From the NCBI GenBank assembly GCA_964562575.1, contig CAZLTY010000033.1:2279-26278 (forward strand): a stretch of 24,000 bases of DNA, read 5' to 3'. A program made the translations under genes and the position numbers. The notes under the pieces are model-generated. The model was not told the origin of the DNA. It did not search any database and saw only the letters and a program-made list of their open reading frames with translations. Source of the stretch: an uncultured Pirellulales bacterium. GTDB lineage: Bacteria; Planctomycetota; Phycisphaerae; Sedimentisphaerales; Anaerobacaceae. Of this stretch, positions 1,369 through 20,846 are shown piece by piece; position 1 is the first letter of the stretch; each line of letters starts with the position of its first letter.

Positions 1369-1470
1369 ATGTTTGAGCGTTTTACAGACCGTGCACGCAA
1401 CGTCATGGCGCTGGCCAACCAGCAGGCCCAACGCTTCGGCCACAATTGCGTCGGGACCGAACACATCTGA
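1369..1470 (+). pseudogene. truncated N-terminal fragment of a ClpC/ClpA-type (Clp_N domain) chaperone gene
   Basis: GAGGTG sits 4 nt upstream of the ATG at 1369. The translation [33 protein letters not shown] then hits TGA. This matches the highly conserved ClpC N-terminus ([33 protein letters not shown]) from memory. No AAA+ body follows. A +1 frame continues weakly ([13 protein letters not shown]...). Confidence 0.55.
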
Positions 1471-1472
1471 AA

Positions 1473-1625
1473 TCACTGGTCCTGTATGGCGAAACTGGCT
1501 CCATCGTCGGTCGACGGAATGTAAGCTCCTATAGGGCACAGCACCTTACTGTTCTGATCGCAGCGGACAATGGTCTTCCACAGCGAATCGAGGCTCTCTT
1601 TTTCGTGTTCGCTTTCCGGAATCAT
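1473..1625 (-). CDS. small hypothetical ORF (50 aa), possibly not expressed
   Basis: The ATG at 1625-1623 lies at the same relative position after the nupC-3'-end repeat as the EEP gene's ATG in copy B. The product is MIPESEHEKESLDSLWKTIVRCDQNSKVLCPIGAYIPSTDDGASFAIQDQ. There are no recognisable motifs, and it overlaps the decayed clp fragment region. Confidence 0.15.
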   Translation of the reverse strand: MIPESEHEKESLDSLWKTIVRCDQNSKVLCPIGAYIPSTDDGASFAIQDQ

Positions 1626-1707
1626 TTTGATCCGTGTCGGCCTTTCAATCCCGCTCGACACATCAGATCAACATTCCAACAACACACGCGGCTGTCATTG
1701 CCGGCTA
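1623..1707 (-). repeat. direct-repeat copy A: orphan duplicate of the nupC 3' end plus downstream intergenic spacer
   Basis: Positions 1639-1686 are identical over 48 bp to 16314-16361. Flanks are similar but imperfect out to 1623 and 1707. On the minus strand it encodes ...PAMTAACVVGMLI*, versus the ...AGFTTACVVGMLI* end of the intact transporter. There is no upstream transporter body. Confidence 0.85.
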
Positions 1708-2523
1708 TTTCTTAGCTACGCGGGCTCTGGACAAGTGGTTCACTTCCACAACGGCACTTGCCTCGGACCTCGAGGCGACTAGCAGCGGAAAGTCCAATTC
1801 CACGCCGGTTCTTTCAAAGCTGCTCTCGGCCTCCTTCAATGCGATATCCGGTCGATTCCTTATCGAGCTGAGATGGCCGAGCATGACTGCCTGCGGCGGC
1901 CTTCTGCTGTGCTTTCTGGCAGTGCACAGCAATTTGCCCGCCTCTGGATTGCGCATGTGAAACCGGCTGTTGGGATTGAAATGGCGGGCGAGCAACTCGG
2001 TGTCGTGATTACTTTCAACAAAGATGAAATCTGAGTCAACGAAATGTTCCAACGAACCATTCCAATCGTTGAAATCCGTTGCGATCACTATTTTGCTTTT
2101 CTTGTACTTGATTACGAATCCGTAGGTCGGATACCACGGATTGTGCGGCACTTCGAAAGCCTGAAAGCTCAGCTCGCCTACCTTAAAGCCGCTGTCGGCG
2201 AAGGGCCTTAATTTGAGTGAGTTGAACCGGCGTCCGTTGAAGTGCTTGTCTTTGAGCTGCGACAAGCAACTCTCATGCACCCTCACTTTGACGCCGAGAC
2301 TGTCAAGGACTCTCAGAGAGTAGTAGCCTATGTGGTCGCTGTGCATGTGAGAGACAACTACCGCATCGACATCAAGTTGATCGCCCAGGTTCTTTGCGAG
2401 GACGTCTCTGGTTCTCTTCATAGAGCCGAGACCACAGTCAATCAGTACCCTGGTGCGGTCGGTCCAGACAAGCAGGCAATTGCCGCTGCTACTGCTGCGC
2501 AAGCTCTTGAAGTATAGAGACAT
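1705..2523 (-). CDS. MBL-fold metallo-hydrolase (YycJ/WalJ-like)
   Basis: ATG at 2523. The N-terminus MSLYFKSLRSSSSGNCLLVWTDRTRVLIDCGL and the HxHxDH motif (VVSHMHSDHIG) are present. The stop codon TAG (1707-1705) lies inside the last 3 nt of repeat copy A. Confidence 0.85.
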   Translation of the reverse strand: MSLYFKSLRSSSSGNCLLVWTDRTRVLIDCGLGSMKRTRDVLAKNLGDQLDVDAVVVSHMHSDHIGYYSLRVLDSLGVKVRVHESCLSQLKDKHFNGRRFNSLKLRPFADSGFKVGELSFQAFEVPHNPWYPTYGFVIKYKKSKIVIATDFNDWNGSLEHFVDSDFIFVESNHDTELLARHFNPNSRFHMRNPEAGKLLCTARKHSRRPPQAVMLGHLSSIRNRPDIALKEAESSFERTGVELDFPLLVASRSEASAVVEVNHLSRARVAKK

Positions 2524-2600
2524 AGTTGTTCGGGGTCTTTTTCGCTTGATTCTACTGCGATTTGTCCTTGTTCACAATACAATCGTGCCGGCGAAATATG

Positions 2601-4556
2601 TCATCTGTCTTCGGCCACCAGAATCGAATAGACGCCGAGTCTTGGGATTATCCATTCGCCGCGCGTTGGGCCTCTTATGATCCGATCGCAGCCCTGGGTC
2701 AGGGCAAGAAGGCGAAGTTTCCCTCCGCCTTCGCAGCGCACACGCACATTCTCCAAGGTGTGCTTGCGATAGTTGAGCAGGTGCACGACGAAACTGCCAT
2801 CGCCCGATTGGGTGACGGTGAACAGGACATACGGGCAGTCGACGACCTCGAACGACGGCATCATGTTCTTGCCGATAAAATCCATGAGAGCCGCCTCGTT
2901 GCCGGCCCTCCTCCACGGACCGTCAGCAAGCATCGGATTCTTCTGCCGCGATTGGCCCCACCGATCCATCGCGCCGGCCTGGCCGTAGACGATCATCCGA
3001 CCGCCCTGGCGAGCATGGCGAGCCAGACTCGCCAGTGATTCGTCTGAAATAAGCTTCGCGTCATAAACGACTACACACTCGTATCGACGCAGATTCTTCT
3101 CGGATATGCGATCTTCGAAGACGACGTCGAACTGCACATTCGCCCGCACGAGATCTGTCAGGAATCCTTCTCTGGGGCGCTCGCCGGCGAAGACGCCCAA
3201 CCGGTCGTCGGTGACGAACGCCACGTCCGCCCTGTAACTGGCGCCAACGAAATGCCGCTCGTGCTCACTCACAAACCGATGGGCCTTATTCGCAGCCTCA
3301 GCAATCTTCATCACTTCGGGTTTCCGCTCGTACAGATGCAGCAGGGCCAGCCCCTCCTGGAATCCCTGAAGCGAGGCCAGCGCCGCGTTGCATTCGCCGA
3401 CAGCGAGCTGGAATCCAAGTGGCGGATAATGATTGAGAAAGCGATGCCCGTTGCGTCTGCCGCCGAATTCAACGATAACCGGCTTGAAGCCTTCGTCGAG
3501 CCCCTTGAGCACACGCAATCGACCAAGATTGGTGACCATCTTTTCGGCGTCGAACGGCTCGGTGTCGATATCGACGAACTCATCTTCCCAGACGCCCTTC
3601 AAGGCATCCGTCGACCGGATCTCGTGCCCCCGCTCGAAACGATAATAGCCCGGCTCGTAACCGTCTTCGGTCGAGATAACATTGCAAGCGCGGCTCATCG
3701 TGTACTTGGGACGGTTCGAATTGACCATAATCACCATGTCACCTTTGCGCTTCCGCGCGTAATCGAGCATCTCGAGACACAGACGTTTCATCACTTCGAG
3801 CTGAAATATGAACCGCGCTTCGCGTGTATCGACAAACTTGTTTTTGGCGAGAAACTCTGCGAACATTGCCTCCGATTTCTTTCCTCGTATCACCCACCAA
3901 GTATTGTCATATTCTATCGCATCGAAACCGGTGTCAATAACCGCGTCGATGCGTCTTTTCATATACTCCTTCCATTCGGGATTCGTAATGTCCGCCCGCA
4001 CGCGCGTTATCCGGCCTATCCGCGCATATGATGCCGATCCGTAGGGAACGGGCTCGTCTTTCTCGTCGAGGAGCTGCCAATCTTTCGAGCGAGGTTCGCG
4101 CGCGAACATGTCGTCGACGAACATATTGGTCGAGGACAGGTACGCGGCCACCTTGATGCCTCGTTCGTGACAGGCTTTCACGTAGTCGCCGAGCAGGTCC
4201 CACTGGTGACGTTCTTTCTCGATGGAGTAGCCCACGTTGAATGTGAGCCAGATAAAGTTGAAGCCCATCGCCTCAACAAGCTCGACGGTTTCAGGATCGT
4301 ACCACCGGCTCGTCGCATCGACCACATTGGGCCAGGGAGCGTTGAAATAGGGCCACCCCGAAAGCATGCCCTTGCACACTTCGAGCGGACCGCCGTCCCA
4401 TCGTGAAAAATTGAGCTTTTGGTTTAACAACCACGCCGGCGCCGAGGCCTTTTCGGGTTTCGGATACTCAGGCCCGGGCCACCAGAGATCGCCGGCGGGA
4501 ACCGGCACTGCGAAAACCAATATCAGAACTACCACAATGAGAAACCGACATCTCAT
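2601..4556 (-). CDS. secreted glycoside-hydrolase-like protein (TIM-barrel-like N-terminal part plus beta-galactosidase-trimerisation/GATase1-like C-terminal part); function putative
   Basis: ATG at 4556-4554 is preceded by AAAGGAGG. The signal-like N-terminus is MRCRFLIVVVLILVFAVPVPAGD. The segment WYDPETVELVEAMGFNFIWLTFNVGYS...CHERGIKVAAYL looks like GH42/GHL-type barrels. The C-terminal YECVVVYDAKLISDESLASLARHARQGGRMIVYG resembles the trimerisation domain. The ORF-track start at 4619 is an upstream TTG. Confidence 0.7.
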   Translation of the reverse strand: MRCRFLIVVVLILVFAVPVPAGDLWWPGPEYPKPEKASAPAWLLNQKLNFSRWDGGPLEVCKGMLSGWPYFNAPWPNVVDATSRWYDPETVELVEAMGFNFIWLTFNVGYSIEKERHQWDLLGDYVKACHERGIKVAAYLSSTNMFVDDMFAREPRSKDWQLLDEKDEPVPYGSASYARIGRITRVRADITNPEWKEYMKRRIDAVIDTGFDAIEYDNTWWVIRGKKSEAMFAEFLAKNKFVDTREARFIFQLEVMKRLCLEMLDYARKRKGDMVIMVNSNRPKYTMSRACNVISTEDGYEPGYYRFERGHEIRSTDALKGVWEDEFVDIDTEPFDAEKMVTNLGRLRVLKGLDEGFKPVIVEFGGRRNGHRFLNHYPPLGFQLAVGECNAALASLQGFQEGLALLHLYERKPEVMKIAEAANKAHRFVSEHERHFVGASYRADVAFVTDDRLGVFAGERPREGFLTDLVRANVQFDVVFEDRISEKNLRRYECVVVYDAKLISDESLASLARHARQGGRMIVYGQAGAMDRWGQSRQKNPMLADGPWRRAGNEAALMDFIGKNMMPSFEVVDCPYVLFTVTQSGDGSFVVHLLNYRKHTLENVRVRCEGGGKLRLLALTQGCDRIIRGPTRGEWIIPRLGVYSILVAEDR

Positions 4557-4640
4557 GACAAGACCTCCTTTTCTGCATATTGACAGTCCTATGATGCCAG
4601 AGTCTCTCCGGATATGCAAGCGTTTGAGGTGTGCATTTTG

Positions 4641-4846
4641 TACCCTTCAGGGCAGTAAATTTCCGCGAGCAGAACTATGAAATGTTATACCCTTCAGGGT
4701 AGTAAATTCTCGCGAGCAAAACCATACCCTGTTATTGTGAGGCCACTTACCCGCGCAAGAACGGGAATTTTAAGTCGGGAACACTATATTGTAAAGCCGC
4801 CTACCCACGCAAGAGCGGGAATTTTCAATCGGGAGCACCATACTTG
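4641..4846 (-). repeat. tandem array of four ~47-54-nt units (order on minus strand R2b-R2a-R1b-R1a); R2a+R1b is one full copy of the bipartite element also found upstream of udk
   Basis: R1a 4641-4687 and R1b 4688-4734 have a 47-nt period. R2a (from 4748) and R2b (from 4802) have a 54-nt period. The minus-sense consensus for R1 is TGCTCGCGRRAATTTACTRCCCTGAAGGGTA. For R2 it is TAKRGTGYTCCCGAYTKAARATTCCCGYTCTTGCGYGGGTARG. The array lies 85-290 nt upstream of the GH-like gene start. Confidence 0.8.
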
Positions 4847-4928
4847 GGCAAGCCCAGGCGAATAAGCGAAGATTCTTGGGGTGACTACCTGCCGACCCGG
4901 TTCGATGGTACTCAGCGTCCGTGCTTTT

Positions 4929-5243
4929 TCATTGGCCCGCGTGTGCGAAATGTCCAACAGCCATCAATCTATGGTCTTCTTCCAGGTGTCTGTGGCGAAG
5001 GAACAGCGCCCGGCGATTGTGCCACAGGATACTCGCCGCTCTGTTCAGACTGCACTGCTGGACCTTTCTTCTGGCATCGGCCCAGTGAGATCCGCAGCGG
5101 TTGCAGAGATCGAGCTGTTTGTCATACCACCAGAGCTGAAAGCCGCCAAAGGACCGAAATTGATCGCCCCTTAACCCGAAAACACTGCCGGTATAGAGCA
5201 GTTGTTTTATCTGCCGTCTGTCTTCGACATTGACCTTTTTCAT
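4929..5243 (-). CDS. hypothetical Cys/His-rich small protein (104 aa)
   Basis: ATG at 5243-5241 is preceded by GGGAGGA with 7-nt spacing. The product is MKKVNVEDRRQIKQLLYTG...LCNRCGSHWADARRKVQQCS...WHNRRALFLRHRHLEEDH. There is a CxxC...C...H pattern but no family recognised. It competes with plus-strand ORFs that lack an SD. Confidence 0.45.
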   Translation of the reverse strand: MKKVNVEDRRQIKQLLYTGSVFGLRGDQFRSFGGFQLWWYDKQLDLCNRCGSHWADARRKVQQCSLNRAASILWHNRRALFLRHRHLEEDHRLMAVGHFAHAGQ

Positions 5244-5425
5244 TTTTATGTCCTCCCTGAAAAATCTCAGCGGTTGCAATTGACGTCTTAGCCTTTACTA
5301 ATAAAAGGCAGTTGACGAGCATTAGGTAACGTATTCTCCTGGAGGCAGCCTCGGGAAATAAGAAATGTGCTCACTTGAATTCTCCGAGCAGAGCGAGTAG
5401 GATGACAGAAAAAGGAGAACATATC

Positions 5426-6298
5426 ATGGCACGAGTAATTATTGGAACTGTGTTTGGAACGTTGATACTGCTCGCTGCGACGAGCAGGTTGAGTGCTCAT
5501 GCAAATCCAAGTGAGAACGAAGAGAAGCCCGGTGCCGGCAACGGCGTGATTGACTTTCCGCTGGCCGACCTGCACATACATCTCAAGGGGGGGCTGACGC
5601 TCGAGGAGGCGATCGAGAACTCGAAAAAGCGAGGTGTCAAGTTCGGTATCGCACAGAACTGCGGCCTCAATTTCCCTTGCCGCGACGATGAGGGCCTGCG
5701 CGAGTTCTTGAAGATGCTCGAAAGCAAGGGCGTTTACGCGGCAATGCAGGCGGAGGGTCGTGAGTGGCTGACGATGTTCTCACCCGAATGGATGGCAAAG
5801 TTCGACTACATCTTTACCGACTCGATGACGTGGACCGACGACAAGGGCAGGCGAATGCGGCTGTGGATGCCCAATGAAGTGCACGTCGACGACGAGCAAC
5901 AGTTCATGGATATGCTGGTTCGCAAAACGGTCGGCATCCTGAGCAGCGAGCCGATCGACATCTACGTCAATCCGACGTTTCTGCCCAGGATCATAGCTGA
6001 CAAATACGACGAGCTCTGGACCAAAGATAGAATGGCAAAGGTGATCGCCGCCGCGGTCGCCAACGACGTGGCGATTGAAATCAACGCCCGGTACAAACTG
6101 CCCAGTATCAGATTCATCAAGCAGGCCAAGAAGGCCGGGGCCAAATTCACTTGCGGAACCAACAACGGGAACAAGAACCTCGGGACTCTCGAATATTGCA
6201 AGAAAGCTATCCGCGAATGCGGCCTCAAAGAAGACGATTTCTTCAGGCCGCGCCCGCCCGGCAAGAGAGCCGTCGACCGCTGGAAGGCCCGGCGATGA
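5426..6298 (+). CDS. secreted PHP-like / metal-dependent phosphoesterase (putative)
   Basis: ATG at 5426 is preceded by AAAGGAG 8 nt upstream. The signal peptide is MARVIIGTVFGTLILLAATSRLSAHA. An N-terminal DLHIHLKG (DxHxH) and a late VAIEINARY motif resemble PHP domains. The final GxDxH motif is degenerate (GTNNGN). Confidence 0.6.
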   Translation: MARVIIGTVFGTLILLAATSRLSAHANPSENEEKPGAGNGVIDFPLADLHIHLKGGLTLEEAIENSKKRGVKFGIAQNCGLNFPCRDDEGLREFLKMLESKGVYAAMQAEGREWLTMFSPEWMAKFDYIFTDSMTWTDDKGRRMRLWMPNEVHVDDEQQFMDMLVRKTVGILSSEPIDIYVNPTFLPRIIADKYDELWTKDRMAKVIAAAVANDVAIEINARYKLPSIRFIKQAKKAGAKFTCGTNNGNKNLGTLEYCKKAIRECGLKEDDFFRPRPPGKRAVDRWKARR

Positions 6299-6418
6299 GG
6301 ACCAAACGCTTTGTTCCAACTGTGTTACCGACGGCAAACATGCATTGAACAACTTTCTCGGTCAATTGTCTGATCTGGCTCTTATTCAAATCTGCGTCCA
6401 TCAGCGTTCGTCTGGTGC

Positions 6419-6444
6419 GTCAGGATAAGCCTGACTTCTCTATT
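6419..6444 (+). terminator. weak candidate intrinsic terminator downstream of the PHP-like gene
   Basis: The hairpin is GTCAGG-ataag-CCTGAC followed by ttctctatt. The stem is short and the U-tract is interrupted. Confidence 0.3.
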
Positions 6445-6581
6445 AGCTTGAAAGGTAGTTGACGTGTTAACTGAATGTCTAACATGTAGTCGAATCGGCA
6501 CAGAAAGGAGTAATCCCCAACGTGAAGCCAACCTCTCCGGTGGTCGATGATTAAGGATGAATAGACTCCCCGCCGCCCGCC

Positions 6582-8249
6582 TCACGAGCAGATTGGCGCA
6601 GAACTGTTTCTCGGCATGATAACTGTGAATTTGGTGCCCTGGCCCTGTCGGCTTTCGACAGATATTTTGCCGGCATGTCTTTCCACTATCTGCTTTACTA
6701 TCGACAGGCCCAATCCCGTGCCGTCTCGTTCGGATTTGCGCGCGTTGCTGGCTCTGAAGAACTCATCGAACACATTCGCCAGTTCGTCTGAGGGTATGCC
6801 GATTCCCGTATCGGCTATGTCTATCTGAACATGGTCGTCATAGCCCCTGGCTTCGAGGTGGACTGTTCTTTTCTCTGGAGTGTACTTGACAGCGTTGAAC
6901 AGCAGGTTGGTGATCATTTCGTTGATAGAGAACTCATGGCCGACAATCTGTCCCAGTGACGAGTCGACATTGGAGCTTACAGTAATCGACTTATCTTTGG
7001 CTTTTCCGGCAACGCTGGCCAGCGCTTCCGATACGCTGTCCGGCAAAGAGAATAATTCCATCTGGAGCTGGCCGCTGAGCCTCATCTGCGTCAGATCCAG
7101 CAGCTCCTTGACGAAGGCGGCAAGCTGGAGGGTGCGGTCAAGTGCCCGGCTCGAGAATTCGTCTCGTTTCTCTTTGGGTAGCTCCGTGGATTCGTCGGTC
7201 GCCACGTAAAGCCAACTGCGTATGGTAGCCAGATGACCCTTGATATCGTGCGTTACACGCGAAACGTACTCGTCCTTTATGCGGTCCTTCTCTTTGAGCT
7301 GGACATTGGCTTCTCTGAGCGATTTCTCCTGCTTTTGCAGTTCGGTGAAGAACAGATTCTTTTGCACAAGGTCTATCTGGCGTGCGGCTGCTTCCACAAA
7401 GTCGAACATCTCCGTCGAGGACCTGTTCTGGAGAACGTCAACATAAAGGGCATCGACGGTTTCACCCAGATCATGTACGCGGGCGCAAAAAACCACATGG
7501 GGTTTGTGCTCGTCGACGATTGTCAGCGCTATGTCATGGTCTGAAGACCTTCCGCTGCTTGCCATCACCGGAGCATTCGTCGAGCGGATCCTATCAAGCA
7601 CGCGTTTGGAAAGATGCAGGGATGATGCCTGATCGACCGACATATCTGTCTGGCCGGCTCCGAAGTGACAGGCAAGGATATTCGGGACCGTTGGTAGGGG
7701 CTCGGAGCTGCAGGGCAGTCTCACGATGGCAACAAGCGTCTCGAGCATCCCGGCCAAACACGAACACGCCTGATCATACAGATCTGACGGGCTAGACAAC
7801 GTGAGCAGGTGATCCGTTAGTTTGTTGAGATCCTGCATGAGAACGGGAGACAGGACGGCGGCCTGGTCTTGGCGGGATACAATTTCCTCCTCGGCAGTTT
7901 CCTCGACAATGGAAATCGTGCTCTGGATGGACGTACCCGGGAGAATCTCCTGGTCGCAGTCCTGTGAGAGGCTCATGGTGAACGGACGTATGCTGATTCG
8001 ATGTCCGGGCACCAGCGCCTGCGCCCTGACTCGTTGGCCATCCACGAACACACCGTTATGGCTGCCCAAGTCCTCGATGATCCACCGCCCGAAAGAATCT
8101 CGGGATATCCTGGCATGATGTCGTGAAACGGCTGCGTCGTCCAGAACAACGCTACAGTCCAAATCTCGTCCGAGCGTCATACCGCCGGGATCGAGCAAAA
8201 TCTCATTGGTCTCTGTCGGCCCGGATACAGTCAGTTTTGCCTCGCCCAT
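6582..8249 (-). CDS. cytoplasmic sensor histidine kinase with N-terminal FHA domain
   Basis: ATG at 8249-8247 is preceded by GAGAGGAA. The FHA signature is MTLGRDLDCSVVLDDAAVSRHHARISRD..WIIEDLGSHNGVFVDG. The H-box is SRVTHDIKGHLATI, the N-box NLLFNAVKYT, G1 DTGIGIP and G2 GTGLGLSIVKQIV. No TM segment was seen. Confidence 0.9.
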   Translation of the reverse strand: MGEAKLTVSGPTETNEILLDPGGMTLGRDLDCSVVLDDAAVSRHHARISRDSFGRWIIEDLGSHNGVFVDGQRVRAQALVPGHRISIRPFTMSLSQDCDQEILPGTSIQSTISIVEETAEEEIVSRQDQAAVLSPVLMQDLNKLTDHLLTLSSPSDLYDQACSCLAGMLETLVAIVRLPCSSEPLPTVPNILACHFGAGQTDMSVDQASSLHLSKRVLDRIRSTNAPVMASSGRSSDHDIALTIVDEHKPHVVFCARVHDLGETVDALYVDVLQNRSSTEMFDFVEAAARQIDLVQKNLFFTELQKQEKSLREANVQLKEKDRIKDEYVSRVTHDIKGHLATIRSWLYVATDESTELPKEKRDEFSSRALDRTLQLAAFVKELLDLTQMRLSGQLQMELFSLPDSVSEALASVAGKAKDKSITVSSNVDSSLGQIVGHEFSINEMITNLLFNAVKYTPEKRTVHLEARGYDDHVQIDIADTGIGIPSDELANVFDEFFRASNARKSERDGTGLGLSIVKQIVERHAGKISVESRQGQGTKFTVIMPRNSSAPICS

Positions 8250-8614
8250 TCGTATGTTCCTCTCATCAAACCATCCGGCCAGCACCACGGCCAATGTTTG
8301 TCAAGTCGTACCTGCCCCCCGGCAGTAGGAAATCTGAACTGATAGTACATCGTCTGGAACGAGCAGGCAAGTCTTTTGTTGAGTTTGCCCTCTGCGCCGT
8401 TTATGCGCCGGCACACGGGCGAATCCTCGACGCTGTGAATCCGCTGCTCTTGGCCCATACTCAAATAGATATCGCGTTATTCAAGGGCAAATCAGTCGTT
8501 TGGCGGCATTTTGAGTATTACTCCTTGATCAAGGACCCTGGTTTCTGGTAGACTTGTTGGAAGGCATCTCAACATTTCTGAGGTTTGCGAGAGTCTGTCT
8601 TGGGACAGTAAGAC

Positions 8615-10537
8615 ATGGGCGTCTGTTTGAGTCAGGAATTGGTTGAACGGTATATAGCTGGAACTTGTTCGGATGACGAGCTACAGGCGATAGAGGTCCA
8701 TCTGGCCGAATGTGAAAGCTGCCGAGAGCAAACCGAATCTGCCCGGTTGAGGATCACCTTGGCGAGCAAGTTAGACTCGGCCCACTTCTCTGGGGCCGCG
8801 AGGGGCGGTTCAGTTGAAAAGACACTTGCGCTTGATGAGTACCCTGTCCAGGCAGAGCCAACAGGGCCGGCAGATCACAGACGGCCCAGCTCATCGCCAG
8901 ATGAAAAGACACGTGTGCTTGAGGATGAACATGCGAATCCGCCGCCGGCCGGACACAACCGCGCCGGGCCAACTGAGCAGACGCTTTCGCTCGACGATGC
9001 CAGTTCGGGCCAAGCCGCATCGCAGTTGACGACGCTCCCATCTGACGGGCAGAACTTTGCCAAAGCGCTGGAGTCTATGATTGCCGGTTACGAGGTCCTG
9101 GAGGAGATGCCGCGAGGAGGTCAGGCGGCGGTTTATAAAGCCATTCACACAGCCACCAAGACAAACGTTGCGATCAAGGTATTACTGCCTACGCTGTTGG
9201 CTTCGGCCAGGGCACGCCACTACTTTGAGAGAGAAGCTGAGCTTATCGCCAGCCTCGACCACCCCAATATTGTCAGCATCCGCGACAGTGGCATCATCAA
9301 CCATCAGTACTACTTTGTGATGCAATACATCGACGGCCAGCCATTGGAGCGATATGTGCGCTTACATAAGCTGTCGTTTCGGGAAACAATCGTGCTGTTC
9401 AACAAAATCTGCGCTGCCATAACTTATGCTCATCAGCAGGGCATTATGCACCGTGACCTCAAATTTGCCAACATTCTTGTGGACAAGCGAGGCGAGCCCC
9501 ACGTGCTGGATTTCGGGCTGGCAAAGGCGGTGGGCCTGAGTGAGAAGTCTCCGGACAAAGCCGTCGCCACGATGACAGGCCAATTGGCCGGAACGCTCTC
9601 GACGATGTCACCGGAGCAGGCAGCCGGTCGGCCCGATCAGATTGACGTGCGTACGGACGTTTATTCTCTAGGTGTTATGCTCTATCGCATGTTGACGGGT
9701 CAATATCCGTATGAAGTTGGCGGCTCTACTCTCGAGGCGCTGCAGAACATCCAGAAGGCCGATCCGGTCAGACCCCGGCAACTTGATCGCAAATTCGACT
9801 CCGATGTCGAGGCCATTCTGCTGACGGCTCTTGCTAAAGATCCTGCTGAGCGATACCAGTCCACTGCCGAGTTGCAGAGTGACACCCAGAACTGGCTTGA
9901 GGGTCGTCCCATTCGCGTAAAGTCGATCAGCACCCTATACCTCTTGCGCAAGATTGTTGCCCGGCATCGATACACAAGTACGGTCGCCGCTTTGCTACTC
10001 TTGATCGTCCTGGGTTTTGCGTACACGTGCCTTGATTTGTATCTAACGGCCGAGAAGGCCCGAAAAGAACAGGTGGCCTACGCTGCGCAGCTAACGGCCC
10101 AGACGGACAGGGCCAAAACGTTGACGCGGTCACTCGTTTTCACCTGTTTCCTGAACGCCTGGAGGCAGGAGAACAGTTTCTTAACCAGGCTGGTGTTTGC
10201 GTACCTATCCGAAGGTTCCAAGGAACGGCAGGCAGCAGTGTTCCTGCTCAGTTCCAAACCTGTGGCAGAGAAAGAGGCTGGTTTTCGCCGGGGTCTGTCG
10301 GAAAAGGACGGCTGGTTCGCAGATTTTATTGTTGGCGAGAATCACCTGCACAGCGGCGACCGAAAAGAGGCGATTGAAGCGTACAGACGCAGCTATGAAA
10401 CCATCCGACAGTTATCGCAGCATGATGACATGAATGTTGGCGGCGTGCTTGTCAATCAGGTCAGGCAGAGATTGGACGAGCTTGATGCCACTGACAAACC
10501 CCCAGAGGAAGGCCAGCAGCGACAGACAGAGATGTAA
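8615..10537 (+). CDS. Ser/Thr protein kinase with N-terminal zf-HC2 (anti-sigma-type) zinc finger, one TM helix and a C-terminal extracytoplasmic helical domain
   Basis: The zf-HC2-like segment is [15 protein letters not shown]. Kinase motifs are [33 protein letters not shown] and SPEQAAG. The TM helix is [22 protein letters not shown]. Confidence 0.9.
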
Positions 10538-10542
10538 GAGCC

Positions 10543-11349
10543 ATGCACTTTCGCGATTCGACATCAGTCAAACGACGCAGAGGTTTTACCCTGATAGAAC
10601 TGCTTGTTGTAATCGCGGTCATTGCGCTGCTTCTGGCTATTCTCCTACCTTCCCTGCGCAAGGCCAAGGCGCTCACAAAGCGTATAAGCTGCCAGAGCAA
10701 TCTCAAACAGATCGCAACCGCGTGGAGCATGTACCTTGATGATAACGACGGGCGTTTTTACCAGCACAGGACCGGCCACCTGAACTACGGCGGATGGCGC
10801 GGGATAATGGGCTGGTCTCCTCGTCCGCTCAACAAGTACTTCAACTTGCCTGTCGATCTGCCCGATGACCCCAATACCAAGACTAACGCCAAAATCTTCT
10901 GTTGTCCCGCCGACCGCGGTGGAGTCCCTGGCTATGCGGTGAGAGAGAAGGCTCACGACTATCTCGGAACCAGCTACCAGACCAATATCATGCTGATCGG
11001 ACCGGATCAGGTCCTGGTTCTTCCCGATGCATTCCAACCGCTCCACCTGGAAATCAACAAGCGGCTGAAGAAGCTCACTCTCGACCGCGTGGACAATCAC
11101 TCGCGCATGTTGCTCATAGGCGATTACGGATCGTATAACCAATGGAAACTACCGCCTCATGCCCGCGAGGACTGGAAGGAGCTTGCGGAGTGGCACGATC
11201 GGCCGGATTGGCACAATATGGCCTTCCTGGACGGCCACGTCGGCTTTCTCAATCTCCGCAAGGGAATTTACGTAGCCGACGAATATACGGTGCTGCCCTT
11301 CAATGAACTCTACGGCCTGGCCCATGAGATTCAGGCGACGTTGCCTTGA
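10543..11349 (+). CDS. prepilin-type N-terminal cleavage/methylation domain protein, DUF1559-like pseudopilin
   Basis: The ATG lies 6 nt after the kinase stop. The N-terminus is [32 protein letters not shown] and the C-terminal motif is [14 protein letters not shown]. It is a paralog of 374-1120. Confidence 0.85.
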
Positions 11350-11367
11350 GCGAAATTCAGCCATTTT

Positions 11368-11399
11368 GAAGGCAACAGCCTCCGTTGTTGCCTTCTTTT
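11368..11399 (+). terminator. rho-independent terminator ending the kinase/pseudopilin transcription unit
   Basis: The perfect 10-bp stem GAAGGCAACA (11368-11377) pairs with TGTTGCCTTC (11386-11395). The loop is 8 nt and the stem is followed by TTTT. Confidence 0.8.
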
Positions 11400-11681
11400 A
11401 ACGATTCCGGACTGGGAGCCTGTTGGGCAACTCGATCTGGCTTCGAGTGGCCCTTTTCCGCCTGGCTGTCCCGATGTACATCGGGAGCTGTATCGACGAT
11501 AAGACCAATCCGCCTTCGGCGGACTTCGCCGTCTTTGCCAGGCGAAGAAATTGTCCGCTCTCGGGCCGACGACGGAATTCTCCGACAGCTTCCTATTGCT
11601 GCAGGCCCCGTCTAAGCCTCAGAATTGAGAAGACTGTGCCAATCCAAACCGGAGAATCTTCCTTCTTTTGAGAGAATTATC

Positions 11682-11711
11682 TTGAAATCATGGGTGATGT
11701 GAAGGTATAAT
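11682..11711 (+). promoter_or_regulatory. sigma70-like promoter candidate for the large surface-protein gene
   Basis: TTGAAA (11682-11687), an 18-nt spacer, then TATAAT (11706-11711). It lies ~160 nt upstream of the ATG at 11873. Promoter consensus in this phylum is uncertain. Confidence 0.4.
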
Positions 11712-11872
11712 TAATCGGTCTGTACCGGTAGACTCATTTGTCATTCGGTTGTCCGGGCAAAAGTAGAGAAATCTCTCGGTTTGTGGCAATTGTTACCCTG
11801 AGGAGGTGCCCAATTAACCTTCGCCGAACTGTTTCATACTCTCTGTCGGCACAAAAGAAAGAAGGCTGTAAG

Positions 11873-14851
11873 ATGATCGCCAATCAAGGAGACAGGATTC
11901 TAAGAAAGACTATGCGTTTGTCTGTGGTTCTAATTGCGGTAATGCCTGCCTTGACTGCGTGGGCACCGCCAATCTACACGATTACACCGTCGGCCGGTCC
12001 AAACGGCTCTATATCTCCTGCCAGCGATACTACCGTAAGCCACAGCAGTGATCTTGTCTTTACGGCTGCCGCCGAGACAGGCTATCAGGTGCATAAATGG
12101 TCACTGGACGGCGAGACGGTTCAGAGCGGCGACACCAGTTACACGCTGAGCGATATCCAGTCCAATCACACCGTCGAGGTAACCTTCCGCCAGCTCAAAT
12201 ACGAAGTTACCGGCATAGCCGGCCCCAACGGCTCGATAAGTCCATCCGGCGCCACGACCGTAACCTACGGAAGCGATTTGGCGTTTACGGCTACTGCCGA
12301 GACAGGTTATCAGGTGGACACGTGGTCCGTGGATGGCTCTGTGGTTCAGATCGGCGGCAGCGACTACACGCTAAGCAACATTCAGGCCGACCATGCGGTC
12401 GAGGTGACCTTCCGCCTGTCGGGATACCATGTAACAGGTTCGGCTGGCGCCAACGGCTCGATAAGCCCATCCGGCTCGACGACCGTAACCCCCGGAAGCG
12501 ATTTGGCTTTTACGGCTACTGCCGATGCAGGTCATCAGGTACATAAATGGTCCGTGGACGGCTCTGAGGTTCAAACCGGCGGTACCGACTACACGCTAAG
12601 CAATATTCAGGCCAATCACACGGTCGAGGTAACCTTTCACGCACTTTCGTACACGATAGACGCCACCGCCGGTCCAGGAGGCTCCGTTGATCCTACGGGC
12701 ATTGATGTCCAATACGGCGGCAGCTCTACATTTACGGCAACTCCCGATACCAACTACAGAGTTGACACGTGGTTTCTAGATGGCTCTGTAGCCCAGACAC
12801 GTGGCACTGCCTATTCCACCGGCAACGTCTATACTGATCACACAATTCATGTCACTTTCGTCAAAGTGCAGGTGCTGTCATATTCTCTTGGATCATTTGA
12901 ATTTGAAGACGAGGATGAGTTTAGCAGTCATATTGTCAACAACAACACAGAGTACCCCGATGAAGCTCTGGTTTTCGTCGAGCCGGTGGGTCTCGGACTG
13001 GATCCTGACAACGTCGCGATGGTACTGCACAACCGAAAGGATAATGAGGGCAAGGCGGTCAATGCGCGCGCCAAAGGCATGTTTGTCAAAACGGGCGCTG
13101 ACGAAATCCTGATCTACTTCAATTACTTGTTCAGGACTTCAAACGTTGAGTTAATCGTCTACGTATCAGACTCTCCACTACCGATGGCCCCCGATGATCG
13201 CCTGCGAGAGCAGCACTACATCGAGGTCGCCCGTCTTGCTTCTCCGCCTTTTCCCAGACCGGGTTCAGTTGGGAGTGGGCGCTTTGCAGTCTTTCAAAGA
13301 ATCGTCTGGACAGGCAGCCTGGACTTTGCCAAAGGGCTCTATATCGAACTGGAGCTGGTTGAGCCAGATTTGAACGGTATCCTTTTGGCTAGCCCGGTGC
13401 CGAGGGTACCGGCGGGCAACGGCGGCAGCTCAGTCTACGTTGACAATTGGAGCACCACGGTGCAGTGTTACGGCATCTGTCAGGACATCAACGGGGACAA
13501 CTTTGTCGACGAGGCGGACTTCCTCATGGTTATAGGTGGATGCGGAGGCGATGCATCCGGTGACAGGGCCTGCCTGGAGGGGGCCTTCAGTACCGATGGA
13601 TATACGGATTCCTATGACGTGGCTTCGTGGGACTGGGCCATGAATTCCGATCAGCGTCTCCTGAATTACTGTGGCTTGCCTCTTACAGGTGGGTCCGCAA
13701 GCTTCCAAATGATGAGTGCTCCAATGCTTGCTCCGACAGGTCCCGGTGAGGCTATGGCATTTGCAAACCTGCCCAATGATTTGAGTGACTTGCTGGTACT
13801 AGGCAAGCAGGGGCCTGCCGATGCGCCCAGCAAGCTGAGAGACCGCCTGTACACCTTCGCCAATGATGGCCGATACACTGGATCGTTCGAGCCTGCATCG
13901 GATCGCGGCAACATCAGGCTTATCCAGGGTTCGGAAGGTGGGCTCTACCAACTTAATTCCGAGACGGGTCTGCTTCGGTTGGACAGCACGGACGAAGTGA
14001 TCATACCACCTGGCAAACTCGAGCCCGCCGGCTTCAGGGAACCTCGCTACAATCGGTCCGCTGCGGTCTACATCGGTATTCAGGGCTCGGACGCGGACTC
14101 ATTTGGCCGTCCTATTCTTGACGCGGCTGTGGAGGCGAACCACGTCTATGTTGTTCCGGTTGTGGTCAGTCCTAATGGCGGTCAGGCTTACACGGCGGCA
14201 GCAAAGCTCAAGCTGCTGACCGAAGGGACCGCCCCATACGAACTTGTAGAGCTATACGACGAGCCTCCGCTCTTGCACGATAACCAGTACCGAGACAATC
14301 TGAGAGAGATCGAATTCGACAGTTCAGGCAACCTGTATGTTCTCAACGTGAATTCTCTCAATGAGAGCGACATACTCTGGAGATACAGGCCGGATGGAAC
14401 GATAGATCGCTTGGAACTGGGCAGACCGGACGGCGCCAACTACGTGCCGGATCCTATTGCGATGCACGTCTCACGGACAACTGACGTGCTGTACCTTGCA
14501 TCGGCCGCACTTGATCCGCTGGATCCGGAGTCGACCATTATCTACCGCTTTTCCACTCTGGGTGCCATTACCCTTGAGAAGTCCATTGCGATTCATGGCA
14601 TACAGCATGTGACCAGCATAGCCGAGGATTCGCAAACCGCAGCGATCTGGGTCGCAGGCTTTAATATGCGCAACATCCCTCTGTATCCGAATCCGACCCA
14701 ACCGGCATTCTACTACCCGCGTCTGGCAAGGGTATCATTCGAATACGGCAATGTCTGGCTGGAGTCTCTGTTCGATCCTTCGTCGCATGACCTGGCGCTG
14801 CCGATGTCAATTCTATGGACAGGGGCTGTCGAGCGAAACGCAGTTCAGTAG
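11873..14851 (+). CDS. large secreted/surface protein: 4 tandem InlB-B-repeat-like/Ig-like domains, one dockerin/EF-hand-like Ca-binding loop, C-terminal probable beta-propeller
   Basis: ATG at 11873 follows GAAGG (alternative start ATG 11912). The signal sequence is MRLSVVLIAVMPALTAWA. The repeats read Y.VTG.AGPNGSISPSG.TTVT.GSDLAFTATA.TGYQV..WSVDGS.VQ.GG.DYTLSNIQA.H.VEVTF. DINGDNFVDEADF lies at 13484-13522. The C-terminal part has NHL-like strings (GNLYVLNVNS..., VLYLASA...). Domain names are from memory. Confidence 0.85.
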   Translation: MIANQGDRILRKTMRLSVVLIAVMPALTAWAPPIYTITPSAGPNGSISPASDTTVSHSSDLVFTAAAETGYQVHKWSLDGETVQSGDTSYTLSDIQSNHTVEVTFRQLKYEVTGIAGPNGSISPSGATTVTYGSDLAFTATAETGYQVDTWSVDGSVVQIGGSDYTLSNIQADHAVEVTFRLSGYHVTGSAGANGSISPSGSTTVTPGSDLAFTATADAGHQVHKWSVDGSEVQTGGTDYTLSNIQANHTVEVTFHALSYTIDATAGPGGSVDPTGIDVQYGGSSTFTATPDTNYRVDTWFLDGSVAQTRGTAYSTGNVYTDHTIHVTFVKVQVLSYSLGSFEFEDEDEFSSHIVNNNTEYPDEALVFVEPVGLGLDPDNVAMVLHNRKDNEGKAVNARAKGMFVKTGADEILIYFNYLFRTSNVELIVYVSDSPLPMAPDDRLREQHYIEVARLASPPFPRPGSVGSGRFAVFQRIVWTGSLDFAKGLYIELELVEPDLNGILLASPVPRVPAGNGGSSVYVDNWSTTVQCYGICQDINGDNFVDEADFLMVIGGCGGDASGDRACLEGAFSTDGYTDSYDVASWDWAMNSDQRLLNYCGLPLTGGSASFQMMSAPMLAPTGPGEAMAFANLPNDLSDLLVLGKQGPADAPSKLRDRLYTFANDGRYTGSFEPASDRGNIRLIQGSEGGLYQLNSETGLLRLDSTDEVIIPPGKLEPAGFREPRYNRSAAVYIGIQGSDADSFGRPILDAAVEANHVYVVPVVVSPNGGQAYTAAAKLKLLTEGTAPYELVELYDEPPLLHDNQYRDNLREIEFDSSGNLYVLNVNSLNESDILWRYRPDGTIDRLELGRPDGANYVPDPIAMHVSRTTDVLYLASAALDPLDPESTIIYRFSTLGAITLEKSIAIHGIQHVTSIAEDSQTAAIWVAGFNMRNIPLYPNPTQPAFYYPRLARVSFEYGNVWLESLFDPSSHDLALPMSILWTGAVERNAVQ
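11975..12868 (+). repeat. intragenic tandem repeat, 4 x ~225 nt (75 codons)
   Basis: Units start at 11975, 12200, 12425 and 12650. Units 2 and 3 are very similar at nucleotide level by eye. Units 1 and 4 are more diverged. Confidence 0.85.
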
Positions 14852-14916
14852 GACCGCGTCGGAGACGTAGATTTTGGTGACTTTATCTTCATGACAAAAG
14901 CGTCGCCCGATCACGT

Positions 14917-16308
14917 TCATTTCGCCAAATCTGAAAATTGAAAATCGATGGTCATTAACAGATGATCGCTCAGTTTGCTGTCGGCAGCATCCAGTTTCAG
15001 TTGCCTGCATTCGGTTTGATTCAGGAACTCGGAATCGAGTATGAATCCATTCTTGCCAGCAAGAGTCTTGGCGCTATAGATGACATAATCCAGCTTGCCC
15101 GGTGAAAAGGAGGCACGCGATCCTCCTCGCCAGGTGACAACAGATTCGCCGATCAAGTTAGGTATCAGCCAATCTTTCAGGCCGCAGGTTTTCTCTTCGA
15201 GGATCAAATCCAAAGGCGCCCTGGATCCGACCAAATTGAAATCGCCGACAATCACTACGGCTGGCTTTCTCCCTCGCGCATCATCTTCGAAATACTGCCC
15301 GCTGCAGACTTCCTCGATCGTGGCAACAATGTCACTCGCCTGCCGGATGCGAAGCCGATCTTCACTGCTGTCAATATATCCCATGGCTTTTAGATGAACA
15401 TTTATGATCAGCAGGTTGTTTTCGGCCAATCTGACCAGAGCCGCCGCATACCTGTCATTTTTCGACGGCAATATGTTCAAACGATACTTCGATGCAATGA
15501 CATTGCCGTGTACTTTGTGGATATGCCACCGACCTTTGTCCTCTGGCGGCATCAAATGTTCCAGGATTTGACCGTGACCTTCGGTCTTCCACTCTTCCTG
15601 AAAACAATAGATGTCACCGTCAACAGAATTCAACAGACGCCCCATCGCCCCTGCTCGATCAGGATCGCTCAAACCTTCGAAATAGGTGTTGAAACTCACA
15701 ATTCTCATGTCGGTTCCGGGCTCCCGACGATGGGAACGGCGCTTGGGTGTTTGCGAGGATTGTGAAAATGTAAATCTAACCGGGGCCCTGAGCTGATCGG
15801 AGCCGCCGAATTGAATGCTTACCGAATCGCCGCGGTCTATATCGAATCGGGCAAGGTCAATCTGCATTTCGAATTCATTCTGCGCGTAGGTCGGCCCGAT
15901 GACGTACTTCAAGTGAGTCCAGGCAATTCGTTCTTTTGCGCCGTCGTTTAGAAAGGCTCGCCTGCCTCGCATATCGAGAACCAGTTGTCGACTGTCCGGC
16001 AGACTGATTGTGACTAGCAGAGTCCCTTCTGCTTCCGGGCCGTTCTGGATGTTCAGGAGGTTAGTCGTATCGAATCGAAGATAGAGCATAGAGCCCTGAC
16101 TTGCGGCGCAGACCGTCGTAATGTCAAACGCGCCCTTGGCGTCCCCTTTTGGATCGCGTGCACAAACTCTGACATCTTTCCAGTCTTGAAATGCTCCGTC
16201 AATTCTCATGACCGATGCCGATAACCTGCCTGTCGAGATCAGTGAAAAAGTGGCAGCAAAAAGACAAGAACCAATCCATGTGCGACGAGGCGATTTTGGG
16301 TTCAACAT
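14917..16308 (-). CDS. secreted endonuclease/exonuclease/phosphatase (EEP) family protein with N-terminal beta-sandwich-like domain
   Basis: ATG at 16308-16306, 30 nt downstream of the nupC stop. The signal sequence is MLNPKSPRRTWIGSCLFAATFSLISTG. EEP strings are RIVSFNTYFEG, IYCFQEEW, LLIINVHLKA, VIVGDFNLVG, LDYVIYS and LSDHLLM. Confidence 0.85.
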   Translation of the reverse strand: MLNPKSPRRTWIGSCLFAATFSLISTGRLSASVMRIDGAFQDWKDVRVCARDPKGDAKGAFDITTVCAASQGSMLYLRFDTTNLLNIQNGPEAEGTLLVTISLPDSRQLVLDMRGRRAFLNDGAKERIAWTHLKYVIGPTYAQNEFEMQIDLARFDIDRGDSVSIQFGGSDQLRAPVRFTFSQSSQTPKRRSHRREPGTDMRIVSFNTYFEGLSDPDRAGAMGRLLNSVDGDIYCFQEEWKTEGHGQILEHLMPPEDKGRWHIHKVHGNVIASKYRLNILPSKNDRYAAALVRLAENNLLIINVHLKAMGYIDSSEDRLRIRQASDIVATIEEVCSGQYFEDDARGRKPAVVIVGDFNLVGSRAPLDLILEEKTCGLKDWLIPNLIGESVVTWRGGSRASFSPGKLDYVIYSAKTLAGKNGFILDSEFLNQTECRQLKLDAADSKLSDHLLMTIDFQFSDLAK

Positions 16309-16382
16309 TTTTGGGCCTTTCAATCCCGCTCGACACATCAGATCAACATTCCAACAACACATGCGGTTGTAAAGCCGGCTAA
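16306..16382 (-). repeat. direct-repeat copy B (native nupC 3' end, stop codon and nupC-EEP spacer)
   Basis: Positions 16314-16361 are identical to 1639-1686. Similarity decays in the flanks, including a ~9-nt indel and a shared caaa(a)ATG. Confidence 0.85.
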
Positions 16383-17594
16383 TGTGCCGCCGACCATGGA
16401 GCGTAAACTCAACTGGGCAATGTCCTCCCGACGGGATGGGACCATGGCGCCGATGCCGCCTATCTGGATGGCAACCGAGCCGAAATTAGCGAATCCGCAC
16501 AGCGCGTACGTTGCGATGGTGAACGAGCGCTCATTCAACTGATCACGCATTTCTACAAGATCCATATAGGCGATGAACTCATTGAGCACCGTCTTTTGGC
16601 CCAGGACGGACGAGACTTTGAGTACATCCTCGCTGCGGATGCCCATGACCCAGGCAAACGGGCAGAATATCCACCCCACGATTCTCTCGAATGTCAGCGG
16701 GGCGGCCACCGTCATCTCCACTGCGGCCTCAGTGCTCCGCGTCATGTAAATCACGAAGAACTGACCTCGATCGAGGCCCCAATTGATCAAGGCGATCAGA
16801 CAGACAAAGGCCAAAACCATGGCCCCGACGTTGAGTGCGAGTTTCAGGCCTATTGACGCCCCGTTACAGGCGGCGTCGATGACATTGCGACCCTGGCGCG
16901 GGACTTCAACGCTGACCTGTCCCCTGGTCTTTGAAACCTCTCGTTCGGGGACCATGATCTTGGCGATCACGAGCGAGGCCGGCGCCGACATGATCGATGC
17001 AGCTAGCAGATGCCCGGCATCGATGCCGAGGCCGACATAGGCGGCCATGACGCTGCCTGCGATGGTTGCCATGCCGCCTGTAAGCATGGCCATCAGTTCC
17101 GAGCGAGTCATCGATTCCAGATAAGGTCGAACCATCAGCGGTGCCTCGGTGTGCCCAAGGAAGACGTTGGCTGCCGCAGCCAGTGACTCCGAACCGGAGA
17201 CATCCATCACGCGCACCATGGACCAGGCCAGCACTTTGACAATCTTCTGAATCACACCCCAATGAAACAGAACACCAGTCAGACATGAAAAGAAAACGAT
17301 CAACGGCAACACCGAGAACGCAAAATAATGGTCTCGAAAACCCTCCCCAAAAAGGAAGGTCGACCCCTCGTTTCCACATGCCACGATTCCATTGACGAAT
17401 CGCTGCAGTGCGTCAAAGACCAGGCGCCCGGGAGTTGTCTTGAGGATCACAAGTGCAAAGGTCAACTGAAACAGCATGCCCGTTACGATCAGTCGCACGT
17501 GAACACGCCTGCGGTCCTCCGACAGCGCCCACGCCAGAAGCAACATCACCCACAACCCCAGGAAACTGATCAGTCTGGGCACCAAGCCATGCAT
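16338..17594 (-). CDS. nupC: NupC/CNT-family concentrative nucleoside transporter
   Basis: This is a 418-aa polytopic membrane protein. CNT-family strings include LAAAANVFLGHTEAPLMVRPYL, MLTGGMATIAGSVMAAY, SIMSAPASLVIAKIM and ALCGFANFGSVAIQIGGIG. Confidence 0.88.
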   Translation of the reverse strand: MHGLVPRLISFLGLWVMLLLAWALSEDRRRVHVRLIVTGMLFQLTFALVILKTTPGRLVFDALQRFVNGIVACGNEGSTFLFGEGFRDHYFAFSVLPLIVFFSCLTGVLFHWGVIQKIVKVLAWSMVRVMDVSGSESLAAAANVFLGHTEAPLMVRPYLESMTRSELMAMLTGGMATIAGSVMAAYVGLGIDAGHLLAASIMSAPASLVIAKIMVPEREVSKTRGQVSVEVPRQGRNVIDAACNGASIGLKLALNVGAMVLAFVCLIALINWGLDRGQFFVIYMTRSTEAAVEMTVAAPLTFERIVGWIFCPFAWVMGIRSEDVLKVSSVLGQKTVLNEFIAYMDLVEMRDQLNERSFTIATYALCGFANFGSVAIQIGGIGAMVPSRREDIAQLSLRSMVGGTLAGFTTACVVGMLI

Positions 17595-17617
17595 CCTTTC
17601 ACTTCACAGCACAAGTC

Positions 17618-17643
17618 ACGGGCCGGGCCGCGCGGCCGCCCGT
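17618..17643 (-). promoter_or_regulatory. GC-rich hairpin in the presumed nupC 5' leader
   Basis: In ACGGGCCGGGCCGCGCGGCCGCCCGT, the outer 6 bp ACGGGC pair with GCCCGT and the inner GGCC pairs with GGCC around a GCGC loop. It ends ~24 nt upstream of the nupC ATG, and no U-tract follows. Confidence 0.25.
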
Positions 17644-17816
17644 TGGCAATGCTCGATTGCACGCCGTCGCAGCATACTACCACAAGAGCACGATATTTCA
17701 AGGCCGGTTGCCATAATGACCACAATTTGGTCGCGCAAGGGCAATGTTGGAACCGAAAGTGGCCGATAAAGAGAGGGAGACTTCCAATTAGTGAAGTCTG
17801 AAATAGAGTTATCGGG

Positions 17817-17920
17817 ATATAGTGCTCCCGATTGAAGATTCCCGTTTTTGCGCGGGTGAGTAACCTTACAATAACAGATTATGATCTTGCTCGCGGGAAT
17901 TTACTACCCTTCAAGGGTAT
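17817..17920 (+). promoter_or_regulatory. single copy of the bipartite R2+R1 element, ending 5 nt before the udk start codon
   Basis: It is ~85% identical by hand alignment (about 16 differences in 104) to the minus strand of 4687-4789. It contains a CCCG-tttttgcg-CGGG hairpin, an ATTCCCG...CGGGAAT inverted pair and the palindrome TACCCTTCAAGGGTA (17905-17919). The 3' half of that palindrome, AAGGG, is the likely udk SD. Confidence 0.75.
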
Positions 17921-17925
17921 CAAGC

Positions 17926-18555: not shown

Positions 18556-18575
18556 GGACCACTTGGGAACACACC

Positions 18576-19349: not shown

Positions 19350-19378
19350 TTCGCGCAGTGAATCAGAAAGAGCTTAGA

Positions 19379-20840: not shown

Positions 20841-20846
20841 ATCGAA

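Follow-up and report, generated by a model that had tools for sequence, protein, structure and literature searches.

The window analysed here, a stretch of 24,000 nt, carries the same 48-bp sequence twice in direct orientation. Positions 1639-1686 are identical to 16314-16361 at 48 of 48 nt, the two lie 14,675 bp apart from start to start, and the match is far beyond chance. The preliminary description was right in reporting a perfect direct repeat, in assigning copy B to the end of an intact nupC (the seven last codons, the stop and a 24-nt spacer) and in stating that copy A has no gene body. It also named the genes between the copies correctly (MBL hydrolase, GH-like protein, PHP-like esterase, FHA-kinase, STK, pseudopilin, giant surface protein and EEP nuclease). 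The features of the locus are, by coordinates in the window:

1369..1470, plus strand: remnant (33 codons) of a Clp_N-domain gene of the stand-alone type; weak match to Pfam Clp_N
1473..1661, minus strand: gene X, a small conserved ORF with no family match
1639..1686, minus strand: copy A, the recipient; 48-nt tract identical to copy B, about 38 nt of it unique to B
1650-1643, minus strand: right microhomology of copy A, ATTGAAAG
1687-1691, minus strand: left microhomology of copy A, CCGC(G), just outside the tract
1687..1707, minus strand: imperfect extension of copy A, containing the TAG stop of the MBL gene (1707-1705)
1705..2523, minus strand: MBL-fold hydrolase gene, 272 aa, ending 8-12 codons before the ends of its orthologues
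about 6300..6580, no strand: synteny breakpoint inside the bracketed interval
14917..16308, minus strand: EEP-family nuclease/phosphatase with signal peptide, the conserved downstream neighbour of nupC (G003, G004)
16314..16361, minus strand: copy B, the donor; codons CVVGMLI (16361-16341), TGA stop (16340-16338) and the 24-nt nupC-EEP spacer; single-copy orthologue in G003 and G004
within the spacer of copy B, minus strand: GAAAGG, the SD-like motif of EEP
16338..17594, minus strand: nupC, an intact, single-copy nucleoside transporter of the CNT family

A search of the whole 4.0-Mb genome, which is 82% complete, found the 48-mer at these two sites only. The occurrence at many other loci by which the preliminary description would have recognised a dispersed repeat was hence not seen, and this class is ruled out. 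The genome also holds hundreds of other exact repeats of at least 40 nt, which we read as mostly multi-copy gene families and intergenic elements. A TR/VR pair of a DGR was rejected, as the copies show 0 differences over 48 nt despite the many A's in the tract and no adenine-specific variation; the RT nearby (20915-22585) is of the defence type by its score. A CRISPR repeat was rejected as well, since two copies 14.7 kb apart form no array and the only hit, to CRISPR-DR56, is sub-threshold (17.1 bits against a threshold of 35, E = 0.82). This hit is at chance level. An RNA motif was likewise rejected, as no Rfam family attained its gathering score.

The genome is a metagenome-assembled one of 252 contigs, and 48 nt is near the k-mer sizes of assemblers, so that the repeat might have arisen during assembly. 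Against this, the same structure with identical junctions is found in seven independent metagenome-assembly contigs of this species (ENA, JGI and Logan, at least six samples), among them a 58-kb JGI contig collinear with the window across 20.5 kb, and the junction microhomologies of 4-8 nt are far under any assembler k. Given the seven contigs, we regard the chance of an assembly artefact as negligible. The Logan contig terminates within the repeat, which is where assembly should stop if the repeat is real and exceeds k. It may be added that an exact-pattern search for the A junction in the metagenome contig collection, which may mask records near to the window's genome, gave 0 matches, that an exact look-up of the nupC protein gave no record, and that the plasmid collection gave no match. 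A 48-bp direct repeat could in principle mediate deletion of the interval; all seven independent contigs are undeleted.

We then compared both sites with those of related lineages. At site B, the junction from nupC to EEP is the same in the congeners G003 and G004, where it is single-copy, and the spacer part of it diverges rapidly between species. At site A, the junction from the MBL gene to gene X is common to nine related lineages (G001-G004 and the metagenome contigs L065-L069), none of which has copy A. In its place they carry an unrelated sequence of 32 nt with the SD site, the ATG and the first six codons of gene X. The sequence shared there codes for the MBL C-terminus, an SD site (AAAGGAA) and the start of gene X (MKISIES), and both flanks align well to the present genome. 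The nearest outgroups are only about 85-88% identical, hence the event that produced copy A is poorly dated.

These comparisons bear directly on the suggestion that the repeats are attL and attR, left by an integrative element which once inserted at the nupC 3' end and whose integrase has since disappeared. The outline of such an element is there: direct repeats, of which one covers the nupC 3' end, bracket 14.6 kb of genes that look accessory (surface protein, kinases, pseudopilin). The junctions do not fit it, since nupC to EEP is ancestral in G003 and G004 and MBL to gene X is ancestral in nine lineages without the repeat, and since ancestral site A codes for conserved protein termini and is not a decayed att. 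The old integration/excision substrate proposed for the nupC 3' end is thereby refuted, as relatives have both junctions without copy A. The empty site that was to be looked for in relatives does not exist (in G003 and G004 nupC is followed by EEP), and the interval is not present or absent as a unit. The proposed composition check gave a native profile: the tetranucleotide profile lies at the 20th-74th percentile of the genome, and the GC content is 0.49-0.57 against 0.546 for the genome. That no recombinase lies between the copies holds for the ORFs scanned, as Pfam and NCBIfam detected no integrase or transposase in the large ORFs of 1705-16308, and the interval has no tRNA gene. As judged from gene order, the interval is not a unit but is composed of two blocks, each with a history of its own. 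In G001, G002 and G004, the neighbours differ between its left half and its right half, with a synteny break between the two; orf307 is followed in G001 and G004 by DNA that in this genome is found on contig C153, and in G002 by DNA resembling contig C102. Relatives also differ in the GH-like gene, which some have and others lack. Altogether, we consider the att reading extremely unlikely.

A different possibility is that the nupC end was duplicated into site A long ago and that ordinary gene conversion has recently made the two copies identical. MAFFT does align ancestral site A to site B with scattered matches (GGAA, TTGAT, ATTGAAAG). The likeness is at chance level, however, with 231 of 1000 and 402 of 1000 shuffles scoring equally well. 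By lineage, the best local alignment does not exceed the shuffled ones in G003, G004 and G002 and is only marginally above chance in G001, where 28 of 500 shuffles are equal. The ancestral site is, moreover, coding and SD sequence conserved in nine lineages. Chance-level similarity excludes an old duplicate, and with the shuffle test rejecting it we hold this explanation to be very unlikely. The exceptions to chance-level similarity are two microhomologies, ACAnCCGC and ATTGAAAG, which fall exactly at the borders of the patch.

The explanation we favour, and regard as probable, is that copy A is a derived ectopic copy restricted to this lineage, made by a microhomology-bounded templated replacement from B to A. 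About 38 nt of the nupC tail and nupC-EEP spacer would have replaced the 32 nt at the junction of the MBL gene and gene X, on the same strand and 14.7 kb away. The recipient without the tract is preserved in the outgroups (G001-G004, L065-L069), the donor is intact in the same genome (16314-16361) and conserved as the end of nupC in relatives, and microhomology is found at both borders without extended prior homology, as measured by the shuffles. The patch would be bounded by sequences already common to both sites, ACAnCCGC on the left and ATTGAAAG on the right, so that about 38 copied bases together with these border microhomologies give the 48-nt run of identity. The direction from B to A, the ancestral state, the junction microhomologies and the fixation in the population are established. 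For the enzymology, we infer a double template switch during replication or break repair as the likeliest mechanism: a nascent 3' end at site A would pair with the CCGC microhomology of site B, about 40 nt would be copied from there, and synthesis would return to site A via ATTGAAAG. A microhomology-mediated tandem duplication followed by imprecise collapse would lead to the same product. Precedents exist for templated patches flanked by microhomology (PMC5453318, PMC5120786) and for microhomology-mediated end joining in bacteria (10.1101/2022.03.14.484287). The alternative of a segmental duplication scar, also raised in the preliminary description, was thus right as to a copy scar and wrong as to its being segmental, since only about 38-48 nt moved from site B to site A.

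Templated replacement also accounts for less sequence than the 1623-1707 over which similarity of copy A to copy B had been reported. From 1638 down to 1623 the sequence is that of ancestral gene X, conserved in all relatives, and the similarity there is not homology; the ATG counted as part of copy A (1627-1625) is ancestral codon 13 of gene X. At the other end the extension to 1707 is ambiguous. Positions 1687-1699 match site A of the closest relative, L065, at 12 of 13 nt as against 8 of 13 for copy B, while TAGCCGGC (1700-1707) matches copy B at 8 of 8, but has a near equivalent at site A of L070. By these matches, 1687-1707 is most likely ancestral site-A sequence, that is the 3' end of the MBL gene, with a prior partial similarity to B. 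The left border is not clean, and the 8/8 match of TAGCCGGC makes a second small patch derived from B, or a mosaic tract, possible. The MBL stop had been described as the last triplet of copy A, defined by the junction; the TAG at 1707-1705 in fact sits 18 nt outside the perfect copy and may be a separate GAG to TAG change.

The patch overwrote the ancestral SD site, the ATG and codons 1-6 of gene X, and through it the tight spacing between the stop of the MBL gene and the start of gene X was lost. What remains as a start is an in-register GTG (1661-1659), which would give 62 aa, or the internal ATG at 1627-1625, from which public assemblies call a product of 50 aa. Neither gene X nor the other small ORFs matched a protein family. 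On the far side of gene X, 170 nt from the patch, the genome has a 406-bp deletion found in this lineage only (junction 1467|1468). It cut a stand-alone Clp_N-domain gene, with a TGA stop created at the junction, and is a second lineage-specific structural change beside the patch.

It could be that the patch arose by the same mutation and was kept by selection as a functional cis element, for example as a shared regulatory or translation-initiation signal coupling gene X to the nucleoside-scavenging genes nupC and EEP, or as a hairpin newly formed between the MBL gene and gene X. The 48/48 identity and the fixation in all samples would agree with this, as would the GTG exactly in register with the lost ATG, a hairpin formed by patch and flank (-24.2 kcal/mol, z = -2.35), and the fact that in the distant genome G034 nupC lies next to an MBL homologue. 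On the other hand, half of the tract belongs to the coding region of nupC, site B diverges fast between species in its spacer part, Rfam has no matching family, and only two copies exist. In addition the samples may share one population, in which case fixation says little, and the hairpin is a post hoc observation with a marginal z-score. We consider selection for a cis element unlikely. More specifically, we speculate that the nupC-EEP spacer, once moved before gene X, rewired gene X, bringing its initiation or regulation into line with that of the nucleoside-scavenging genes, and was kept identical by selection or conversion, a proposal that we judge improbable; if true, a natural regulatory region would have been moved by a long-range template switch. 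Selection or repeated homogenisation could, more generally, be behind the perfect 48-nt identity.

The scar left by templated replacement is an ordinary product of DNA repair or replication, not the border of a mobile element. It offers a clean natural case of templated replacement bounded by microhomology, spanning 14.7 kb in a planctomycete-like bacterium, for which the ancestral state is known and in which the stop/start junction between two neighbouring genes was rewritten; unless the patch is functional, no further new biology follows. The locus also calls for caution, as a perfect direct repeat with a gene 3' end around accessory-looking genes mimics an island boundary, and it took the comparison with relatives to reveal a mutational scar of 48 nt.

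The resemblance to the att repeats of islands, ICEs and prophages at gene 3' ends lies in a repeat that carries the last codons and the stop, with one copy on the intact gene and the other orphaned. Unlike in att-bounded elements, the scanned ORFs include no integrase, relatives show no empty site, both junctions are older than the repeat, and the interior is native in composition and composite in origin. With ectopic (non-allelic) conversion between bacterial paralogues the event shares a one-way transfer between two loci of one chromosome, with the donor kept. Classical gene conversion requires extended pre-existing homology, whereas sites A and B are unrelated except for the microhomologies. 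The closest likeness is to templated insertions of the FoSTeS/MMBIR type, short template switches (PMC5453318) and complex insertions (PMC5120786), in which a short tract identical to a sequence elsewhere in the genome replaces the local one. As in template-switch mutations, both borders lie in microhomologies of 4-8 nt, the donor has kept its sequence, and a further rearrangement, here the 406-bp deletion, is found nearby. Template switches have been described as mostly local (<1 kb) and inverted, whereas the present one is a direct copy from 14.7 kb away, and it occurs in a bacterium and is fixed in a natural population.

The 48-bp perfect direct repeat noted in the preliminary description was confirmed, the two copies being identical at 48/48 positions, in direct orientation and 14,675 bp apart, with all genes concerned on the minus strand.

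1639-1686, minus strand: copy A, 3' of the MBL-fold hydrolase (MBL) gene (2523->1705), without a transporter body
16314-16361, minus strand: copy B, the last seven nupC codons (CVVGMLI), the TGA stop (16340-16338) and 24 nt of spacer

The spacer in copy B ends 5 nt before the ATG, at 16308, of a gene for an EEP-family nuclease/phosphatase. The repeat is real and non-random; a 121-nt query around copy A found two places only in the 4.0-Mb assembly (252 contigs, 82% complete). Exact-protein look-ups recovered contigs from independent ENA (ERZ23498668, ERZ23498658 and ERZ23498639), JGI (3300009128, 3300009314 and 3300013119) and Logan (SRR8062346) assemblies, all with copy A and both junctions letter for letter and none with a deleted or ancestral form. 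These identical junctions rule out an assembly artefact. Window 1-20538 lines up collinearly, at 99.95% identity, with a 58-kb JGI contig that holds both copies, and the Logan contig ends within the repeat, as expected of a true repeat longer than k.

The repeat had been proposed as a possible boundary of a 14.6-kb integrative element, or as a segmental duplication scar. The relatives refute the boundary reading: they carry both junctions without copy A, an outcome that the preliminary description had itself named as refuting it. In the congeners G003 and G004 (DNA identity about 86%) the EEP gene comes next after nupC, and the orthologous site-B sequence occurs once in each genome. The left-hand neighbourhood is common to the four congeners G001-G004 and consists of pseudopilin, Clp_N, gene X (a small conserved ORF without family match) and the MBL gene, of which G001 has a remnant of the 3' end. 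In these genomes and in five metagenome contigs (L065-L069, MBL 76-88% identical) site A has one common sequence, quite unlike copy A: ...ACAACCGCGAG TTGAAAGGAACATTGAT ATG AAG ATT TCA ATT GAA AGC CCG ACA CGG.... It encodes the last MBL codons and stop, then an AAAGGAA Shine-Dalgarno (SD) site and the start of the 62-aa gene X (MKISIESPTRIKMIPE...). As this ancestral site is unrelated and the window aligns cleanly with the relatives on both flanks, copy A is the derived state, and the supposed island had both of its junctions before the repeat arose. The ATG at 1627-1625, which had been counted in the repeat pattern, is instead ancestral codon 13 of gene X.

An old nupC fragment at site A can be ruled out, as the similarity of site A to site B in relatives is no better than that of shuffled sequence (231/1000 and 402/1000 shuffles reach the observed score). 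ACAnCCGC and ATTGAAAG were common to the two sites, and exactly there lie the borders of the patch, the tract at site A identical to copy B; about 38 B-specific nt stand in place of 32 A-specific nt, and the identical run reaches 48 nt once the microhomologies are counted in. The 13 nt left of the perfect copy (1687-1699) are ancestral, since they agree with L065, the closest relative, at 12/13 positions of its site A and with copy B at 8/13. Further left, TAGCCGGC (1700-1707) agrees with copy B at 8/8, but L070 has a similar string at its site A; either the likeness was there before the event or this is a second tiny patch. We conclude that copy A is a microhomology-bounded templated replacement. 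Its direction, from B to A, is given by the data along with the ancestral state and the microhomologies. For the enzymology we infer that the most economical route would be a double template switch while DNA was being replicated or a break repaired; a tandem duplication that then collapsed imprecisely would lead to the same result.

Gene X has lost its SD site, its ATG and codons 1-6, all overwritten by the patch. A GTG at 1661-1659 keeps the exact register of the former ATG and would yield MSSGIERPTRIKM...; the product in public gene calls starts at an internal ATG and is 50 aa long. The MBL stop of relatives overlaps the gene X start or sits a few bases from it. In the window a TAG closes the MBL gene 8-12 codons earlier than in relatives, and were this TAG absent the reading frame would continue across the patch and finish on nupC's own ACVVGMLI*. 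The patch forms an imperfect palindrome with its right flank (1625-1700, minus strand), in which TTGATC..GTGTCG pairs with CGACAC.GATCAA. The RNA hairpin predicted from it is marginal (-24.2 kcal/mol, z = -2.35, 4/200 shuffles as good); it may be due to chance or relevant to the return of the switch to site A. Rfam yielded no match at gathering score, the sole further result being a chance-level CRISPR-DR56 match.

Five nt past the gene X stop lies the junction (1467|1468) of a 406-bp deletion specific to the window lineage, which may or may not have arisen together with the patch in one repair episode.

1369-1470, plus strand: Clp_N remnant, a stand-alone Clp_N-domain gene cut to 33 codons, with the 5' part left

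This gene is intact (about 150 aa) in G001, G003 and G004.

The gene content between the copies was as first described: MBL hydrolase, GH-like protein, a weakly PHP-like ORF, FHA-histidine kinase, zf-HC2 Ser/Thr kinase, N-methyl pseudopilin, a 1037-aa protein with InlB-type B-repeats, and the EEP enzyme. The N_methyl/DUF1559 proteins indicate an organism of planctomycete-like kind. The stretch between the copies does not form a single unit. Its composition is native (GC 0.49-0.57, genome 0.546; tetranucleotide distance 20th-74th percentile), and it holds no recombinase among the ORFs scanned and no tRNA gene. After orf307 (5375-6298), G001 and G004 continue into DNA found on contig C153 in the window's genome and G002 into DNA resembling contig C102, which places a synteny breakpoint at ~6300-6580. 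The segment from FHA kinase to giant protein occurs, among the relatives, in G003 only. The FHA-kinase-to-nupC segment was joined at ~6300-6580 in the window lineage only, possibly also in G003. The GH-like gene (region 2601-4842) occurs in G000 and G003; G002 and G004 lack it between the MBL gene and orf307, and in G001 it was undetected.

Upstream of the GH-like gene are tandem 47-55-nt units, which recur ahead of udk (17817-17925) and at numerous G003 loci, where contigs break at them. The GH-like gene of sample ERZ23498658 has an 11-bp indel, and two ORFs are called for it. The giant B-repeat surface-protein gene (11738-14851) is two ORFs (196 + 782 aa) in JGI 3300009128 and one 992-aa ORF in JGI 3300009314; the two forms (L056 and L057) are a 1-bp indel apart, hence a frameshift polymorphism in the population.

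In a genome of another family, locus L059 (G034:C12, 9632-11621) has nupC (53% identical), 55 nt and then an MBL-fold homologue (46% identical to the window's MBL), an adjacency that hints at a functional link of transporter and hydrolase. A Pfam match to Anti-Pycsar_Apyc1 was also obtained, as were weak NCBIfam matches to cyclic-nucleotide phosphodiesterase and RNase Z. The sole compositionally atypical stretch of the window is 17501-22500 (tetranucleotide distance 93rd percentile, GC 0.46-0.49), where a stand-alone reverse transcriptase (20915-22585) sits; its best NCBIfam matches are the defence RTs Drt4, Drt3a and Drt5, all below cut-off.

The repeat is thus a small mutational scar and not an island boundary. 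The kind of event is ordinary and in this case cleanly documented; events comparable to the templated patch have been reported (PMC5453318, PMC5120786), and for bacteria there is documented microhomology-mediated end joining (10.1101/2022.03.14.484287).
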